DNA from: an uncultured Methanoregulaceae archaeon
GTDB taxonomy: Archaea; Halobacteriota; Methanomicrobia; Methanomicrobiales; Methanospirillaceae
Direction: 5' to 3'
Length of the DNA stretch: 64,000 nucleotides
Assembly: GCA_963717525.1 (NCBI GenBank)
Contig: OY970343.1
Coordinates: 1,472,001-1,536,000 of the forward strand
The position numbers are program-made. Positions 42,001-54,000 of the stretch are shown piece by piece (within the stretch, counting starts at the first letter, position 1; each line of letters opens with the position of its first letter).

Positions 42001-45000
42001 TTCAGGCCGGTTTCTGCTGGCGCAAGGAAGCAATAACTTCCTTGATATCGGGGATGCTGTGAACAGGATAGATCTTCACGAAGGTAACCCGCTGTTCCTC
42101 ATCAATGAGAATATTAGCCCTCTCTGAGAACCCGTTTGCATCCCTGAAGATCCCGTACATCATGGCAACATGACCGTGAGGCCAGAAATCACACAGCAGG
42201 GGGGTTTGCGTGATCCCCAGATTTCCAGCCCATGCCTTCTTGCAGGGAACAGAATCGACGCTGATCCCGACCGCTATGGTGTTAAGGGATGCCAGGACAT
42301 CCCGGTTATCCTCGAGCGATTTCATCTGGCCGGCACAGAAAGGGGTCCAAGCAAGCGGGTGAAACGAGAGAAGAACCCCTTTTCCTGCATGTTCAAACAG
42401 ATCAAAGGTCGCATCGTTCTGATCTTTGAGCGAGAAATTCCGTGCCGGATCGCCGGTCCGAATAAGGGGCTGCCCTTCCATGATATCACCAGTACACTTC
42501 CGGAATGCAACCATCAGATATGAGGGTTCGCATCCCGGAAGCCTGGCCTGTAGCGACCGCTGTGTCCTTTATCTGGGCCGTGCGCGTCTGGAGGGCGGGG
42601 AAAGAAGAGACTTGGCCTTCCTTTTTGGGGAGTCCTCCCGCCGTACCTGTGCAAGTTCAGGCTCAAACCACGCCCCGATACACTGCCTGACCACGCCTAG
42701 ACACGCATCACTGTCCAGGAATATCGCACCGATGATGGCTTCCATCGTATCGGCAAGGATCTTCTCTTCCCCGGACTTCCAGAGATCCTTTTCCCCGCGC
42801 CCAAGCCGGATGAACCGTTTGATCTTCATGCGCCTGCCGATCTTTGCAAGGCTGATATTATCCTCAAGTTGTTCCTTTGTCCGGGTTATCGCACCCTTTT
42901 CCTGGAGCCCTTTCTCCATTAAAAACAGGATCAGGCTGGTCTTGAGCACGGCATCCCCGAGAGTACGTATAGGCTTCCTGGGTCAGGCAGATCCGGTTCT
43001 GCTGGATAAGTTCGTTTGCATAGGCAGGATGCGTTAGCGCCCGGATCAGGTGCTGCCGCTCGAAAAAATGATAGCCTATGATACGCTCTATGGCCTGAAC
43101 ATCGTCCTTTTTTTCCATAATCTTCACTTAAGCCGTTAGCGGATGACGACATAAAGACCTCGGCCCCTTTGAAGAGGCCGGGTTTTTTTGAGTGGGTGGG
43201 GCAGGATCAACCCACTGATCCTATTTCCCGGGCGTCTGCTGGAGGACAAGAGCCGCAGAGTTCATGCAGTAGCGTTTCCCCGTGGGTGGGGGCCCGTCAT
43301 CAAAGATATGCCCGAGGTGAGCCCTGCACCGTGAGCAGAGGACTTCGGTACGGACCATCCCCTGAGTTGTGTCTTTCCTCAAGGTGACATTGAGCGGAGA
43401 AACCGGTGCAGAGAAACTTGGCCAGCCGGTACCAGAGTCGAACTTTGCCTCTGAAAAGAAAAGGGCGGTCCCGCAGCAGGCGCAACGATAGATACCGTTG
43501 GCTTTGCAGTCATGGTACTGGCCGGTGAACGGATACTCGGTCTCCTGCTTTCGTGCCACGGCAAACTGCCGGGGGGTCAGCTGTGCCTGCCACTCTGCAT
43601 CGGACTTTTCGATCGATGCGACATATTCCACATCGTTCTTTTCCGGGTCAAAGATCGGAATGGTACTGCTTATGTTCCTTCCTTCTGAAATGCTCTTCTT
43701 CATTTTCAGGAATACTGCCTCCTTCACATTCTCATCGGTACCTGGGATAATATAGACTTTCTGCCGGTCGCCATTGCGTTACATACCAAAGAAACCCAAG
43801 ATACGGCGTTTTGGATCCTTGTAGAAGATCCTCACTCCGTCTTTGATGTTCCGGACGTCCTCAATGGTGTAGAGGAGGTCCGGATACTCCCGGGAGATGA
43901 GGGAGAGCAGCCGGTGTTCTCTGGTTGACCGTGTATAAACCGCATAGAGCTCTATGCAAATCCGGCCTGTTACCACAGCCGGGGTAAACCAAGATCCGTT
44001 GAAGTCGCTGTAAAAAACGGGTTAAATGATCCACAAATCAATTAGGAGCTCATTCGGACTGGAAGGAAACACTTTCACCATCCACGGCCGGGGCTTATCA
44101 GGGATCCCTTCAGAAAATTACGAGGATGAGAAAAGGTGTGCACCTCGTAATAGGGATAATAGCGTTTTTTACATACGCATACCTGATCAACGATATCCAT
44201 GCAATTTCCACGGGTTTTTTTGTTCTCGGACTTTTCGCAGTTGTTGCCGGTTCAGCCATGCCGGATGTCCTGGAGGCACCCACCAGCTCAAGACACCGGG
44301 GGATCTTTCACAGCAGGCGGGCACTGAAATGTTCTGTGATCATATTCGGACTTACAGCGGCAATCGGTCTGTTATCATCACTGCCTTCATTGAGCACAGC
44401 CATCAGCTTTGGACTTTCCTGTTTTTTCCTCGGGTATTTCTTCCATCTCCTGGCAGACTCCACGACAAGAAGGGAACTCCCGGAATAAAACGAAGGAATG
44501 GCAGTTCTACCAGATGAGTATGATAGTGCCGGACAGAACAAAACCTGCTAAAATTCTGTTGAGATCGCAGGGTATGAGATAAGGGCCGGTGGCAGCCTCC
44601 CGAAGATCAGGGTAGACCGGCTTTCGTAAAGAGACAGGTGGATCTATCCTTTTTTACCCAGAACCCGGATGATCGCATCGCCGAACTCCCGGGTCCCGGC
44701 CGATCCCCCGATGTCCCGGGTCCGGATACCGGACGAAAGAACCGTGGTGATGGCAGCCTCTAACCGGGCAGAACCTTCATTGTCCCCAAGGTAGGCGAGG
44801 AGCATCGCTGCGCTCCGCAGGGCTGCAACGGGATTTGCACTGTTTTTCCCGGCAATATCCGGGGCGCTGCCGTGGACCGGCTCAAACAAGGCATACCGGT
44901 CCCCGATATTTGCGCTCGGCACAAGACCCAAGCCCCCGACAAGGTAGGAGGAGACATCAGAGAGGATATCGCCAAAGATGTTCGTGGTCACGATCACATC

Positions 45001-51000: not shown

Positions 51001-54000
51001 CACCGCTCGTGAGCGATATAGCGCCGACCCGGTGCCGGACCGATTCGACGAGATCCATGATCTCCTTTACGGTTTTACGTTTACCGGCAAGCCGGGGGAC
51101 AGAGCAGTAGCGGCAGGAGAAGATGCAGCCCTCCGTAACGGTAATAAAAGCCTGGTCCGGGCAGTGAAGCCCCGGCTGGAGGAGCCGGCCCGAAATCTGC
51201 CGGTCCTCAAAAAAGAGATCGGCAACCCCGCCCCCCCGGTGGGCGATCTCAACAGGGGACGCCGGGTTGATCGCAAGCTTGACCCGGTGGCTGCCCATGG
51301 CAAAAAAGACCGAGCCTTTTCCACCAGCGCCCGGGCCTGCCGTGGATTTTGCAAGGTAATCCTCTGCTGGTTCGCCGCTGAGCCGGGCAGAGCCGGCCTC
51401 GAGCAGCCGGGCCTTCAGTTCTTCCCACTGCATAGTTCCAGCGCCTCCTCGTACCGGATGAAGAACGGCAGGGCAGCCACCGCCCCGGTGATCCCCCGCC
51501 CGTTCATCACAATGCGGAGATGGGGATCTTTGAGAGTCTGCACACGATCCGGAGTCACTTCCCCGCGTTTTACGTCCTTTGCGTAATCCATGAGCTCGTC
51601 TGACAAGGAAAAACCGGTATAGACAGCCATGCCGGTCTTCTCTGAAAGGGTATATTTTTTGAGCAACTCGCAAAACCGCCTAACAAGTTGTTCCGGTACT
51701 GTCGTGGCAAATTCAGCGACAAGACTCACGCAGTTCTTGGTCCGGTACGCCACCGGGAAGAGCTGGACAATCGTATGCGAGAGATAGACAGATTGTTCAT
51801 CCTCAACCGCCCTTGCGATATTGTGGACAAGTGTCCACGTCGCTCCCTCTTCTGCCGTGTCGGTATCATCCACCCCAATCAGAATCCGCTGCCGCCGGGG
51901 CAGCCAGAGCGTGGCACCTGCCACTTTCCCCCCGCCGGAAGGATCACACTGTTCCCGCAGCACACCCCGTGCGGCAGCACGGCAGGAGGTTGCACCCACG
52001 CCACCGCCACCCATACCGATGTAGGTCACCGCAATCTCATTCCTGCTTACCGAGACCCCGGAGATTCCTGCGGGGAACCGGGATCCTTCGAGCGCAAGAT
52101 CGACGGCACCGGGACGGAGCAGGTACCGGGATGTCGATCCCACGCACCTGACACTCTTCACCAGAGGGCTCTGTGCATAATGATGCTGGGTCCACATTGC
52201 GCCCCCGATACAATCGAAGAATTCGATCAGCTCGACCTGGCTCGCGGTCTCATCCGCCACCGCAACGATCCGGGGATACCGGATCACGTACGGATCAGAG
52301 ATGCTCGCCATACAGCCCCGCCGCCTCGATTCCCCGGTCTGCCCACAGCACTGCACCGAGCGCTCCGATCCGCCCTTTCCTCCCATTATGGTCGAGATAC
52401 TCGATGCCGAGCCGCTCTGCCTCTTCCTGTGCATTTTCAACGGTAAGGATCTCCGTCTTGATGGCTTTCATGAACGGGGACTCCTGCCCGGTCCCGATAC
52501 CCCGCGAGAATGCGATGCCGGTATCCTTCGAGAAGGTATGATCTTCCACGAACGTGCAGACGAACTCACGAAGTGCACTGATGCTTTCTGGCCGGGCGGC
52601 AAAGGTGAGGGCGGAACCGACACAGTTTGTCGTTTTGCTGGGGACCGCCGGGTTGAGCTGGACAAGCCGCATGGTGAGGAACTCAACGCCTTCGATATGG
52701 CAGGCCTCCGCACATTTTAAGGCCATCACCCATGTGGCACCCTCCTGCCTTGTATCCGTATCATCGATCCCAAACGAGATCTTCTCGTACCTGGGGGATA
52801 CGATCCGGACGTGGTTGGTCCGTGCACCCCCTACCTTAAGGTCTTCTTCTGCCGGGTATTCCGCCCGGATAACCCCCGGCGCCTGAGGGAGGCATGCAGC
52901 AATACCAACACCAGCGCCAGCGATACCTGCCCATGTGGTGATCACCTCATCACCCTTCACTTCCACCGCTTCCAGTGCCTGGCCGCCGATAGTCCCCGCG
53001 GCTGCCCCGAAATTGACCGGGTGGTGGCCGAGGCGTGCCTGCATGGTCATCGAGATCCCTTCCACGGCACACGCTGCCACTGCACCACCGGCGCGGGACC
53101 GGTTCATGGCATCCCACTCAATCGTTCCCCGGGCGTGACACTGCTCAAGGATCTCGGCACGCCCTGCCCTCTCGTCAACCATCACCAGAAATTTCTTTGA
53201 GAAGAGCGGGCCGAACCGCTGCTTCACGCCATCGGGTGTAAGTATGATCATGTTATCGCCGAAATTTTCGTTAACAAAGTATTCGGCAATAACAATATAT
53301 ATAGAATTCCATGACTGAGAAAATTTTTGCAGAAAAAGAGATTAAAGGACCTTTGCCAGTTCAATCTTGAACGGGCCAAGACTGCCGCCAAAATTACCTG
53401 CCGAGATAAACTTCACGCCCGGCACCTTGACAGCGGCCCTGATACCTGCCCCCATCGCAGCGGCAACGCTCTTCTCATCAACGCCATCGATAACGATCTC
53501 GTAGACTGCCTTGACGCCTGCCGGAACCTTGCTGTCGGGAACTTTTTCGCGGAGCGTGGGGCAGTACTTCTCGTTGGTGGAGGCGGTCATGAATTTGTAC
53601 TTCAGGCTGCCGACCTTGGAACCGCTTGCGACAATCCCGCCGGGGAAACTTGTGATAACTCCTTTCACATCGGCAATCGCGTCTGATGCTGCCTGGGCCG
53701 CCACGAGAGCTGCCATCTGGTTCTCGCCCATGATAAAGAAGTTGCCGCCGGCAACACCCTTCACGATGCCGAATTCCTCTTCCCCGACATACTCACCGTT
53801 CATGATCGGGATCGCCCAGCACTTCCTGCCGCCTACCTCTTTCTGGTACTCGTACCCGTCACCGAAGAAATGCAGTTTTACCGGGATCTTCTCCTCGGCA
53901 TCGGTGATGCCGTTGAAAACCGCTGTCGTAGGTGCCGTCAGCACGCACTCGGCGAGGCGTTCCACGACCTGCTCCTTGAGTTTCTTCTTGCTGGCGCAGA

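Follow-up and report, generated by a model that had tools for sequence, protein, structure and literature searches.

The minus strand of this Methanoregula genome carries, between positions 44644 and 53251 of the window (the whole 64,000-nucleotide stretch of DNA analysed here), a single nine-gene operon whose members run, from 5' to 3', in the following order:

52295..53251, minus strand: paralog of methanogenesis marker 11 (Mmp11), a TiaS-kinase-domain (TCKD) protein of 318 aa (TiaS_TCKD, E 3e-15)
51415..52311, minus strand: Mmp11, 298 aa (TIGR03280, 334.5 bits)
50465..51433, minus strand: radical SAM protein, 322 aa (Radical_SAM, E 2e-15)
49197..50468, minus strand: short IorA-like thiamine-diphosphate (TPP) protein, 423 aa (IOR_alpha, 144 bits; TPP_enzyme_C)
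48085..49216, minus strand: AksA-type homocitrate synthase (HMGL-like and HCS_D2 on both pieces)
46877..48088, minus strand: HacA, homoaconitase large subunit (TIGR01343 hacA_fam, 443 bits)
46407..46877, minus strand: HacB, homoaconitase small subunit (LEUD_arch, 155 bits)
45610..46410, minus strand: DUF7714 protein, XcbA homologue, 266 aa, GTG start at 46410 (PF24830, 283 bits)
44644..45625, minus strand: AksF-type homoisocitrate dehydrogenase (Iso_dh on both pieces)

Inspection of the open reading frames bears out the nine cistrons and their order as given in an earlier survey of this genome, and the family matches were reproduced (TiaS_TCKD twice, TIGR03280, Radical_SAM, TPP_enzyme_C, HMGL-like, Aconitase, Aconitase_C, DUF7714, and Iso_dh). 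The operon is translationally coupled, with adjacent genes sharing 1 to 20 nt (17, 19, 4, 20, 4, 1, and 4 nt with the starts chosen here); these overlaps agree with the survey's finding, but its "55-nt gap" is the frameshift zone of AksF. The DUF7714 start at 46410, with GGAGG upstream, is the sole in-frame start in codons 61 to 131 of its open reading frame. A single surplus base, at 48314 in AksA and at 45062 in AksF, spreads each of these genes over two frames: short-read contigs from four public runs of three studies miss one base at each position and are otherwise identical, and comparison with three relatives gives +1 nt at ~48313 and +1 nt at ~45061 as the only uncompensated coding indels. 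Both "split" genes are assembly errors, as had been suspected. The mcrB and mcrA genes are likewise split in this assembly, and the completeness of this genome is 87%, vs. 95 to 99% for genomes of the same genus and family.

AksA, HacA, HacB, and AksF convert 2-oxoglutarate to 2-oxosuberate, a pathway established for these families. HacA exceeds its family cut-off (385.7 bits) and also matches the Aconitase domain; a second large-subunit paralog lies at 69 to 70 kb of the genome (41% identity). HacB is above the cut-off for LEUD_arch and below that for HacB2_Meth (158 vs. 230 bits), matches Aconitase_C, and has a YLRT loop that is the same in six syntenic copies, the loop of the other small subunit of this genome being FLTI. 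The two AksF pieces score 139 and 149 bits against AksF2_Meth.

The arrangement is strongly conserved within Methanomicrobiales, where 80 of 80 loci are colinear over their extent and the whole order is kept in all 64 that extend to AksF, the other 16 ending at a contig end. The operon genes are found again, reordered, in Methanocellaceae [Mmp11-(rSAM)-TPP adjoining AksA; HacA-HacB-AksF-DUF7714], Methanosarcinaceae and Methanotrichaceae (in Methanosarcinaceae and Methanothrix, an Mmp11-TPP pair plus HacB-DUF7714-AksF), and a fifth family, f10 (TPP; AksA; HacA-HacB-AksF-DUF7714). The TPP gene lies directly 3' of Mmp11 in five of five Methanosarcinaceae loci read, and also in Methanothrix and Methanocellaceae, while DUF7714 is always placed among HacB and AksF, between or behind both, in five lineages with otherwise different neighbors. 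DUF7714 occurs in 70 genomes of a 151-genome sample, all within families f1 to f6, f7, f10, f14, and f24, and TPP orthologues occupy the same five lineages. The survey had missed the TPP protein in other families, but we find clear orthologues (500 to 754 bits) in 50 genomes of four of them (f7, f10, f14, and f24), with a partial match only in genome G090 of f10 (E 1e-72); the short form is present in all 19 sampled genomes of the order. Neither DUF7714 nor a TPP orthologue was found in Methanonatronarchaeia (0/4), f12 (0/5), f15 (0/14), or f20 (0/2), most of which carry McrA, and the M. jannaschii control likewise gave no match for DUF7714. The proposed tie between the five unassigned genes and the coenzyme B chain-elongation genes is supported, and it recurs well past one order in independent arrangements.

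We propose, at a probability of about one half and on the basis of association and homology, that the operon spans the route from 2-oxoglutarate to 7-mercaptoheptanoate, its non-Aks/Hac genes forming the arm from 2-oxosuberate to the thiol. The IorA-like thiamine-diphosphate/[4Fe-4S] protein would decarboxylate 2-oxosuberate to 7-oxoheptanoate, at the C7 aldehyde level; the BioB/LipS2-like radical SAM protein would deliver sulfur to that C7 carbon while Mmp11, as an ATP-using TCKD protein, would activate the leaving oxygen; and DUF7714 would act last, forming 7-mercaptoheptanoate by reduction of the resulting C=S intermediate, in the manner of its bacterial homologue XcbA in coenzyme M synthesis. 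The substrates and the step order are our inference; what we observe directly is how the operon is built and conserved, which homologies its proteins show, and which metal and nucleotide motifs they keep. The setting, with hdrCBA and mcrBDCGA within 10 kb, fits this proposal. Shared regulation of five functionally unrelated genes within a methanogenesis gene island is very unlikely: ftr, a polyferredoxin gene, hdrCBA, and mcrBDCGA do lie within 10 kb, and marker genes with unrelated functions often cluster, but the start/stop overlaps throughout the operon, the wedging of DUF7714 at HacB/AksF in five lineages, and the confinement of DUF7714 and the TPP protein to the same lineages argue otherwise.

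The thiol role suggested for DUF7714 gains a concrete basis in its sequence homology to XcbA, the bacterial thioaldehyde reductase that completes coenzyme M. The operon protein matches the XcbA family NF052538 over nearly the full profile length (E 1e-12; 47.8 bits, below the cut-off of 150), and archaeal DUF7714 proteins match it at full length with E 1e-12 to 1e-22 (48 to 80 bits, again below 150). A tblastn search with DUF7714 retrieved an unnamed gene within xcb-type coenzyme M clusters on plasmids of Nocardioides JS614 and Methylocystis iwaonis, whose products score 423 and 278 bits against the XcbA family, and five cysteines are invariant between DUF7714 and these two proteins. In bacteria, sulfoethanethioaldehyde is reduced to coenzyme M by XcbA, a [2Fe-2S] protein (PMC9457059).

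The TPP protein scores far below the IOR_alpha cut-off (144 vs. 651 bits). Across 12 aligned orthologues C270, C273, C295, and C412 are invariant, as are G330-D331 and N359, and orthologues outside the order (485 to 560 aa) share the four conserved cysteines. No CxxCxxCxxxCP ferredoxin motif was seen when the sequence was inspected by eye, and no IorB-like (CoA-binding) partner gene lies within the operon. The TPP step suggested by the survey is plausible and gains support from four other families, in which the orthologues adjoin either AksA or Mmp11. The four cysteines are those of the OFOR cluster site, which fits oxidative rather than simple decarboxylation and counts against the step as proposed here.

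The radical SAM protein carries CX3CX2C plus a C-terminal CxxCxxC, and C103/C107/C110 and C308/C311/C314 are invariant in seven of seven aligned orthologues. After the generic variant_rSAM, its top named NCBIfam match is LipS2 (65.5 bits, below cut-off), and its sole match in a sequence search of the PDB is biotin synthase 1r30 (E 0.0014). Against our proposal, the operon copy is a long-branched paralog and not a clean orthologue group. Paralogs elsewhere adjoin COG1900 sulfurtransferase genes (f15 and f12), ThiI, a TtuA-like gene, and a SepCysS-like gene; together with the retained C-terminal motif, these neighbors strengthen the earlier suggestion of a role in thiol formation. A biotin function, in which the TPP/[4Fe-4S] protein would oxidatively make a pimeloyl compound from 2-oxosuberate and the BioB-like radical SAM protein would also serve biotin, is highly improbable. 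The OFOR-type cysteines and the weak biotin synthase match fit it, as does 2-oxosuberate, which has been discussed as a pimelate source in methanogens, but BioF, BioA, and BioD are absent among the matches in the operon and the loci read, bioB scores 21 bits where the cut-off is 225, the CoA-binding partner is missing from the operon, and the DUF7714–XcbA homology points to thiol formation.

Mmp11 exceeds the TIGR03280 cut-off of 255.8 bits, and its paralog does not (184.9 bits). In Mmp11, an unmatched N-terminal domain is followed by the TCKD and a ferredoxin-like domain, and in the AF2 model (pLDDT 86.4) residues 140 to 297 superpose on TiaS (3amt_A; Z 19.0, rmsd 2.2 Å, 154 residues), so that the C-terminal part is predicted to share the TCKD fold. 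The DDTD...GATW motif is kept in the paralog, and DDTD in Mmp11. The TCKD of TiaS uses ATP to activate a carbonyl oxygen for amine attack and phosphorylates its own Thr18, chemistry that, with the fold match and the DDTD motif, is in line with the survey's reading, in which the TPP protein would give the C7 aldehyde/acyl compound, the thiol would come from the radical SAM protein and/or DUF7714, and the two TCKD proteins would be an ATP-dependent 7-mercaptoheptanoate:threonine ligase and a threonine kinase. Genes for a class I/II aminotransferase (Pfam Aminotran_1_2; it reads as CobD-type), CbiB, CobS, and a nucleotidyltransferase precede Mmp11 in Methanocellaceae, and the cobamide pathway also consumes threonine phosphate. 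A third paralog lies directly 3' of homoserine dehydrogenase in seven of nine loci, and ThrB above cut-off was not found in this genome or in any of 19 genomes of the order, a hint that phosphorylation of a hydroxy amino acid lies within the family's reach. Threonine might be joined or phosphorylated by Mmp11 or by the paralog, but the evidence singles out neither.

As written, the threonine part of this reading is unsupported, and we consider the reading as a whole quite unlikely: nothing ties either protein directly to threonine. The paralog is no standing member of the operon, since 26 of 80 Methanomicrobiales loci lack it upstream of Mmp11. Of 20 loci read beyond or across the order, only the two that belong to the order have it next to Mmp11; outside the order, the type was seen unlinked in f14 and nowhere else, apart from a single match of 233.7 bits in a genome of f15. 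The distribution of Mmp11 is also mismatched with MCR, since Ferroglobus placidus, Geoglobus acetivorans, and one f17 genome carry the Mmp11-rSAM pair with no McrA found, and no Mmp11 match above the family cut-off was found in three MCR-bearing families (f12, f15, and f20).

That pair occurs in Archaeoglobaceae, Methanonatronarchaeia, and the f17 genome without the TPP orthologue or DUF7714, which favors a reading in which only the latter two make coenzyme B and Mmp11-rSAM is a separate module for general sulfur insertion, aldehyde-to-thiol conversion, or MCR maturation that merely travels with methanogenesis genes. Consistent with this, f10 has YcaO-TfuA-HycI-like-Mmp11 on one strand, at another site from the TPP and DUF7714 genes that remain with the Aks genes; TfuA-YcaO adjoin the pair in one Archaeoglobaceae MAG; in Methanohalarchaeum Mmp11 lies 0.85 kb upstream of mcrB, mcrBDG being adjacent to Mmp11 among the contexts seen; and the radical SAM paralogs have varied sulfur genes as neighbors. 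We nevertheless judge it rather unlikely, because Mmp11 is followed by the TPP gene in three other lineages and is translationally coupled within the operon, and because thioglycine formation reportedly needs YcaO and TfuA alone. In favor of our proposal, the pair in Geoglobus lies beside a gene for a fused sulfopyruvate decarboxylase, which is likewise a TPP enzyme that makes an aldehyde.

Returning to the route to 7-mercaptoheptanoate, a 2025 article still terms the late pathway of coenzyme B unknown and names the COG1900 proteins MMP16 and L-ASST as those proposed to form the thiol (PMC12068725). These candidates differ from the radical SAM protein and DUF7714, which counts against our proposal. 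The survey's claim that the five genes supply all late steps holds for their linkage to coenzyme B genes but not for threonine. The set cannot be the universal late pathway, because the paralog, Mmp11, DUF7714, and the TPP protein are missing or were not found in various loci or lineages and Mmp11-rSAM occurs in genomes in which no McrA was found. The solution belongs to the Methanomicrobia/Methanosarcinia/Methanocellia group and not to all methanogens, and within it five uncharacterized enzymes become testable candidates for gene-less steps in the synthesis of coenzyme B, an essential cofactor.

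We find that nine cistrons on the minus strand of the window (44644-53251) join the chain-elongation genes of coenzyme B to five unassigned genes, and that they lie so close together that the gene-to-gene overlaps are 17, 19, 4, 20, 4, 1 and 4 nt when starts are chosen to fit the family matches. Pfam and NCBIfam reproduce every family listed in the survey's finding, and the operon that it described is confirmed, on stronger grounds than were first given.

Cistrons of the operon (window coordinates)
52295-53251, minus strand: paralog of methanogenesis marker protein 11 (Mmp11) with a TiaS kinase domain (TCKD); TIGR03280, 184.9 bits, below the cut-off of 255.8
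51415-52311, minus strand: Mmp11; TIGR03280, 334.5 bits, above the cut-off of 255.8
in the operon, minus strand: radical SAM protein; PF04055, 57.7 bits against a cut-off of 29.5
in the operon, minus strand: thiamine-diphosphate (TPP) protein of 423 aa that has both thiamine-diphosphate domains of IorA, the N-terminal and the C-terminal one; IorA model, 144 bits, below the cut-off of 651
in the operon, minus strand: AksA-type synthase, HacA, HacB and AksF-type dehydrogenase; Pfam and NCBIfam
in the operon, minus strand: DUF7714 protein; PF24830, 283.1 bits against a gathering cut-off of 25, profile positions 2-280 of 280

The genome belongs to a Methanoregula, and the Mmp11 of the operon is 86% identical to a protein of Methanoregula boonei. 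Both AksA and AksF are spread over two reading frames, which the survey had put down to assembly frameshifts, and this explanation stands: relative to three relatives with 82-84% identical DNA, the only uncompensated coding indels are two single additional bases, near 48313 and near 45061, and the Logan contigs from four public runs of three studies are each exactly one letter short at both 48314 and 45062, with 0-4 other differences. With one extra base each in AksA and AksF, the operon has nine genes, not eleven. Two further genes nearby are interrupted, mcrB being divided between two frames that overlap (60329-61279 and 61065-61760, within 60329-61760) and mcrA being split across two frames just beyond the window end (63661-64000, running on past the window). 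Four essential genes broken inside 20 kb (aksA, aksF, mcrB and mcrA) fit an error-prone long-read assembly; the completeness of this genome is 87%, versus 95-99% for genomes of the same genus or family.

The gene ftr lies upstream of the operon on the same strand, and the opposite strand carries a polyferredoxin gene followed by hdrC, hdrB, hdrA and mcrBDCGA. Within 57432-60062, the HdrA2-type gene stops at 59642, and the MvhD-like part, which in HdrA2 is fused to it, starts at the next base in the same frame as a separate ORF; these may be two distinct genes, or the stop may be recoded or read through. At 39414-41336, a single 640-aa ORF consists of an N-carbamoylputrescine amidase-like half and an agmatine deiminase-like half.

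Scanning with an Mmp11 alignment, one genome per species, gave 519 loci, the best 80 of which all belong to Methanomicrobiales (Methanoregula, Methanolinea, Methanoculleus, Methanospirillum and others). Over the length that it covers, each of these best 80 loci follows the gene order of the window; 64 run through AksF, and the remaining 16 end within 0-120 nt of a contig end. The exception is the first gene, the Mmp11 paralog being absent before Mmp11 in 26 of the 80 loci, with a remnant of about 55 codons in two of 14 inspected paralog-less loci.

Beyond the order, we compared 20 kb around Mmp11 in 20 genomes from ten families with the window proteins, scanning neighbours of other kinds with Pfam and naming the families by exact protein look-up. 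In all four Methanocellaceae loci, Mmp11 and a TPP gene of 499-547 aa, in some cases together with the radical SAM gene, lie beside a divergent AksA | HacA-HacB-AksF-DUF7714 block; in all five Methanosarcinaceae loci and in Methanothrix, Mmp11 is followed directly by the TPP gene. Among further loci, two from Methanosarcinaceae have HacB-DUF7714-AksF, Methanothrix has DUF7714-AksF behind an aconitase small-subunit gene, and another family (f10 in our 151-genome sample of the phylum) has the arrangement TPP | AksA | HacA-HacB-AksF-DUF7714, with Mmp11 elsewhere. The links of the TPP gene to Aks genes, of DUF7714 to Aks genes and of Mmp11 to the TPP gene are thus each kept in several arrangements, so that inheritance of a single ancestral operon alone explains them poorly. 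One Methanosarcinaceae locus has a carbon-nitrogen hydrolase gene after the TPP gene (L005:12140-12922), and Methanonatronarchaeum has an AIR synthase-related gene ahead of its radical SAM-Mmp11 pair (L009:11831-12778).

Among the chain-elongation genes, HacA scores 443 bits with the hacA_fam model (cut-off 385.7), and the equivalog models HacA_Meth and HacB2_Meth give 397.6 and 158 bits against cut-offs of 550 and 230, respectively. The loop of HacB has the sequence YLRT both in this operon and in six syntenic copies, versus FLTI in the second small subunit of the genome; we take YLRT to be the mark of homoaconitase. Scored piecewise, since both genes are split by the assembly errors, AksA matches LEU1_arch with 386 and 40 bits and AksF matches AksF2_Meth with 139 and 149 bits, and their tentative assignment draws on synteny with HacAB and on the presence elsewhere in the genome of a separate leucine-type enzyme set. 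The genome also has a full-length IorA outside the operon (1598-1600 kb). In the HdrED paper on Methanosarcina acetivorans expression, MA4615 is a 1548-bp LeuA-type gene, and MA4612-4614 are absent from its tables.

Among the unassigned genes, DUF7714 has as its single NCBIfam match the XcbA family (NF052538), over nearly the full profile length. According to PMC9457059, XcbA of Xanthobacter autotrophicus Py2, a [2Fe-2S] protein, catalyses the final step of coenzyme M synthesis in bacteria, the reduction of sulfoethanethioaldehyde to the thiol, and was at that time described as being without known homologue. The window protein scores 47.8 bits (E 1e-12) and two other archaeal copies 78-80 bits (1e-22), all below the 150-bit cut-off, with 23-26% identity, whereas bacterial controls from Nocardioides sp. 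JS614 and Methylocystis iwaonis reach 423 and 278 bits. A tblastn search of plasmids with DUF7714 returned four records; in the two that were opened, from these same bacteria, the match is an unnamed gene flanked by a phosphosulfolactate synthase gene on one side and lyase/PLP genes on the other, as is typical of xcb clusters. Five cysteines (C166, C189, C210, C224 and C225) are invariant across five archaeal DUF7714 and two bacterial XcbA-family sequences, and are candidate [2Fe-2S] ligands or a redox pair.

Both proteins sit inside operons that build a thiol cofactor, although DUF7714 is flanked by homoaconitase and homoisocitrate dehydrogenase genes rather than by phosphosulfolactate synthase and lyases, and the archaeal protein would act on a C7 acid instead of a C2 sulfonate. 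By analogy with its characterised bacterial homologue, DUF7714 is predicted to reduce a C=S group to the thiol of 7-mercaptoheptanoate. The literature searched yielded no link of XcbA homologues to coenzyme B and no mention of DUF7714. Methylocystis iwaonis is a methanotroph, and the coenzyme M cluster on its plasmid (NZ_CP143315.1, 188.8-203.5 kb) is a complete one of the xcb type, next to a cluster of MSMEG_0568 radical SAM, Nit6803 nitrilase and AIR synthase-like genes.

DUF7714 is present in 70 of the 151 genomes, namely in all 19 Methanomicrobiales, all 14 of family f7, all 18 of f10, all 15 Methanocellaceae and all four Methanotrichaceae, and in none of the other 81; among control genomes, M. 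acetivorans has a match and M. jannaschii has none. The TPP orthologue occurs in the same five lineages, which are related and so not statistically independent. The AF2 model of DUF7714 (pLDDT 81.7) has as its best VIA match a generic alpha/beta fold (Z 7.3), and the VIA fold search gave no clear solved relative; HypD was considered as a fold relative and set aside, its Z of 5.9 being too weak for use. PDB sequence searches with Mmp11, the TPP protein and DUF7714 returned no match.

The survey had not recovered the TPP protein in other families; we do find orthologues there, which are longer (485-560 aa, versus 423 aa here), the difference being a middle domain that is lost in the form of the Methanomicrobiales. 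A profile built from 12 orthologues separates them from ordinary IorA, giving 500-754 bits in 14 of 14 f7, 17 of 18 f10 (the 18th has a partial match only), 15 of 15 Methanocellaceae and four of four Methanotrichaceae genomes, versus 260-320 bits for the ordinary IorA of the same genomes, which is read from frames of 590-650 aa. Within the order, a search with the single TPP protein of the window gives a strong match in 65 of 67 other genomes, and two MAGs reach IorA level only. The profile search found no orthologue in Archaeoglobaceae, Methanonatronarchaeia or families f12, f15 and f20.

The protein shares with IorA and other oxoacid:ferredoxin oxidoreductases (OFORs) the PYR and PP domains, with G330, D331 and N359 of the thiamine-diphosphate GD...N motif and E46 of the PYR domain invariant in the 12 aligned orthologues. 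All 12 also keep four cysteines (CxxC, GC and one near the C terminus), which we take to occupy the position of the proximal [4Fe-4S] cluster of these enzymes. It differs from IorA in its smaller size and in its score with TIGR03336 (IOR_alpha), 144.3 bits in two stretches versus a cut-off of 650.9. Since the two-cluster ferredoxin motif CxxCxxCxxxCP was not seen when the sequence was read by eye, and no IorB-like partner gene lies in the operon or nearby, the TPP protein is a minimal OFOR-like enzyme, in which decarboxylation would be either non-oxidative or oxidative; the tracer work on 7-oxoheptanoate is said to require the non-oxidative form. A functional parallel is ComDE, likewise a TPP-dependent 2-oxoacid decarboxylase making the aldehyde precursor of a methanogen thiol cofactor, although ComDE belongs to the phosphonopyruvate decarboxylase branch and the operon protein to the IorA branch with cluster cysteines.

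Among seven copies of the radical SAM protein that are linked to Mmp11 in five families, the CX3CX2C motif (C103, C107 and C110) is invariant, as is a C-terminal CxxCxxC. The best named matches, ranking behind the generic variant_rSAM model, are LipS2 (E 5e-18) and, in the PDB, biotin synthase (E 0.0014), both far below the family cut-offs (LipS2 NF053743, 65.5 bits versus 270; BioB TIGR00433, 21.1 bits versus 225). As in LipS2 and BioB, CX3CX2C is accompanied by a second cysteine triad, a candidate auxiliary-cluster site, but here the triad is the C-terminal CxxCxxC, and sulfur insertion is putative. The family is found in 101 of the 151 genomes, and its tree has two deep clades, with a long branch for the window copy, and does not part Mmp11-linked from unlinked copies within class II methanogens. 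A sulfur role for the family is suggested by the unlinked copies, whose neighbours are consistently sulfur genes: ThiI (twice), a TtuA-like gene, a SepCysS-like gene with a sulfhydrylase, and a PP-loop ATPase. In one f15 and one f12 genome, both with McrA, a divergent member directly adjoins a COG1900-CBS gene of the L-aspartate semialdehyde sulfurtransferase type (L107:5950-8546 and L108:5967-8979), followed in one of the two loci by a ferredoxin gene. These sequence contexts support a role in sulfur delivery or insertion. The predicted complex of Mmp11 with the radical SAM protein scored 0.00 with no controls run, a value that says nothing either way.

Mmp11 retains the TCKD fold of TiaS together with its DDTD nucleotide motif. 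In the AF2 model (pLDDT 86.4), residues 140-297 superpose on the TCKD and ferredoxin-like domain of TiaS (3amt_A; VIA Z 19.0, rmsd 2.2 A over 154 residues; Foldseek E 3e-7), with the N-terminal 139 residues barely covered by the fold searches, and the motif DDTD...GATW is conserved in 12 of 12 aligned proteins, with D148, T150 and D151 invariant and D149 nearly so. The TiaS model NF040849 has no match to Mmp11 and matches the paralog with 47.1 bits against a cut-off of 600, over profile positions 3-150 of 422 only. At 298 aa (paralog 318 aa) versus about 420 aa in TiaS, Mmp11 is too short to accommodate the OB and zinc-ribbon domains. Its first 139 residues make up an N-terminal domain peculiar to it, and its partner genes are enzymes, not tRNA genes. 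The paralog upstream of it is of a separate type, 27-33% identical to Mmp11.

The distribution of Mmp11 does not fit a universal enzyme of coenzyme B synthesis. McrA (PF02249) is present in 84 of the 151 genomes and Mmp11 above its 255.8 cut-off in 78, and the two diverge in both directions, so that Mmp11 is not restricted to MCR organisms. McrA was not found with PF02249 in five Mmp11-bearing genomes, four Archaeoglobaceae, including Ferroglobus placidus (G047) and Geoglobus acetivorans (G065), and one of family f17 (the other three being G057, G073 and G059); the radical SAM gene lies beside Mmp11 where inspected. Conversely, Mmp11 is above cut-off in none of five f12, 14 f15 and two f20 genomes, in which McrA occurs in 5, 7 and 2, respectively. 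Because of these mismatches, we do not regard Mmp11 as universal to coenzyme B synthesis.

Its other contexts are varied: YcaO-TfuA-HycI-like genes in f10, TfuA-YcaO on the opposite strand in an Archaeoglobaceae MAG, mcrBDG in Methanohalarchaeum, and in Methanocellaceae an aminotransferase gene (read as CobD-type), CbiB, CobS and a nucleotidyltransferase gene. Ferroglobus placidus and Geoglobus acetivorans (L006 and L007) keep an overlapping Mmp11-radical SAM pair, and McrA was not found there; in Geoglobus the pair is followed within 2 kb by a cysteate synthase-like gene and a fused ComDE-like sulfopyruvate decarboxylase (1.9 kb behind), which hints at a thiol or sulfonate cofactor. MtxX (methanogenesis marker protein 4; 203 and 224 bits, over cut-off) directly adjoins an Mmp11-family gene in two unrelated genomes (L018:10839-11699 and L118:3547-4269); the 2026 MtxX paper mentions neither MMP11 nor coenzyme B.

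A third Mmp11-like paralog of 372-389 aa (TIGR03280, 126 bits; winged-helix N-terminal match in one scanned copy) lies directly behind homoserine dehydrogenase in seven of nine loci, two Methanocellaceae loci being the exceptions; in this genome it is at 723.8-725.9 kb (L119:1790-3866), and other copies are in L122-L125, L127 and L128. ThrB above cut-off was found neither in this genome nor in any of the 19 Methanomicrobiales, with 43 of the 151 genomes having it, and it was likewise not found in families lacking the third paralog. The third paralog may be a homoserine kinase unrelated by orthology to ThrB, or its substrate may be aspartate semialdehyde.

In three contexts, then, a TCKD protein adjoins a maker or user of an aldehyde, namely 7-oxoheptanoate, sulfoacetaldehyde or aspartate semialdehyde, and the conversions of these aldehydes to thiols in methanogens are alike. 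On this analogy, Mmp11 more probably activates a carbonyl or hemithioacetal during thiol formation than ligates an amide. A kinase of a hydroxy amino acid would suit the homoserine and cobamide contexts equally, which makes the Mmp11 step the least certain. No paper on Mmp11 function was found in the literature searched, to which subscription titles do not belong.

The same aldehyde-to-thiol step has another candidate in the COG1900 proteins (L-ASST and MMP16/ComF), which carry out formally the same reaction in methanogens and which PMC12068725 suggests for coenzyme B, a pathway that it still described as unknown in 2025. The operon has no COG1900 gene, and COG1900 has no sequence relation to the five unassigned genes; five Mmp11-bearing genomes that were examined have one COG1900 copy each, which does not discriminate. 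For coenzyme B, a 2011 inventory lists the chain-elongation enzymes only (PMC3087415).

We give a probability of about 0.5 to the reading in which the TPP protein would convert 2-oxosuberate to 7-oxoheptanoate, the radical SAM protein would bring in sulfur, Mmp11 would use ATP to activate the leaving oxygen, and DUF7714 would reduce the resulting C=S group to give 7-mercaptoheptanoate. The reactions beyond 2-oxosuberate were reportedly outlined in tracer work around 1990. Of these assignments, those of DUF7714 and the TPP protein are the most secure in our view; that of the radical SAM protein is less so, and any specific role of the two TCKD proteins is the least secure. The survey's proposal that the five genes form the late coenzyme B pathway is partly supported, by the homology of DUF7714 to XcbA and by TPP orthologues that accompany Aks genes and Mmp11; the gene set is a lineage-specific solution rather than a universal late pathway. 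More tentatively still, and with the odds against it, Mmp11 as a TiaS-type kinase-domain protein may join with a radical SAM protein of the BioB/LipS2 kind and an Fe-S reductase of the XcbA kind in an undescribed ATP-dependent aldehyde-to-thiol machinery, fed by a minimal OFOR-like TPP/[4Fe-4S] decarboxylase, that would make 7-mercaptoheptanoate in Methanomicrobia, Methanosarcinia and Methanocellia, with the Mmp11-radical SAM core acting on other aldehydes elsewhere, for example beside the sulfopyruvate decarboxylase gene of Geoglobus, in which McrA was not found.

Methyl-coenzyme M reductase requires coenzyme B each time it turns over, whether in methane formation or in anaerobic methane oxidation, and the operon, together with the rearranged versions seen in four other families, offers four or five concrete candidate genes for the synthesis of coenzyme B. 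If confirmed, they would fill one of the few gaps left in cofactor synthesis by methanogens and give a function to a "methanogenesis marker" protein. The late pathway would then differ among methanogen lineages, as coenzyme M synthesis does, and would provide lineage-specific targets for methane mitigation.
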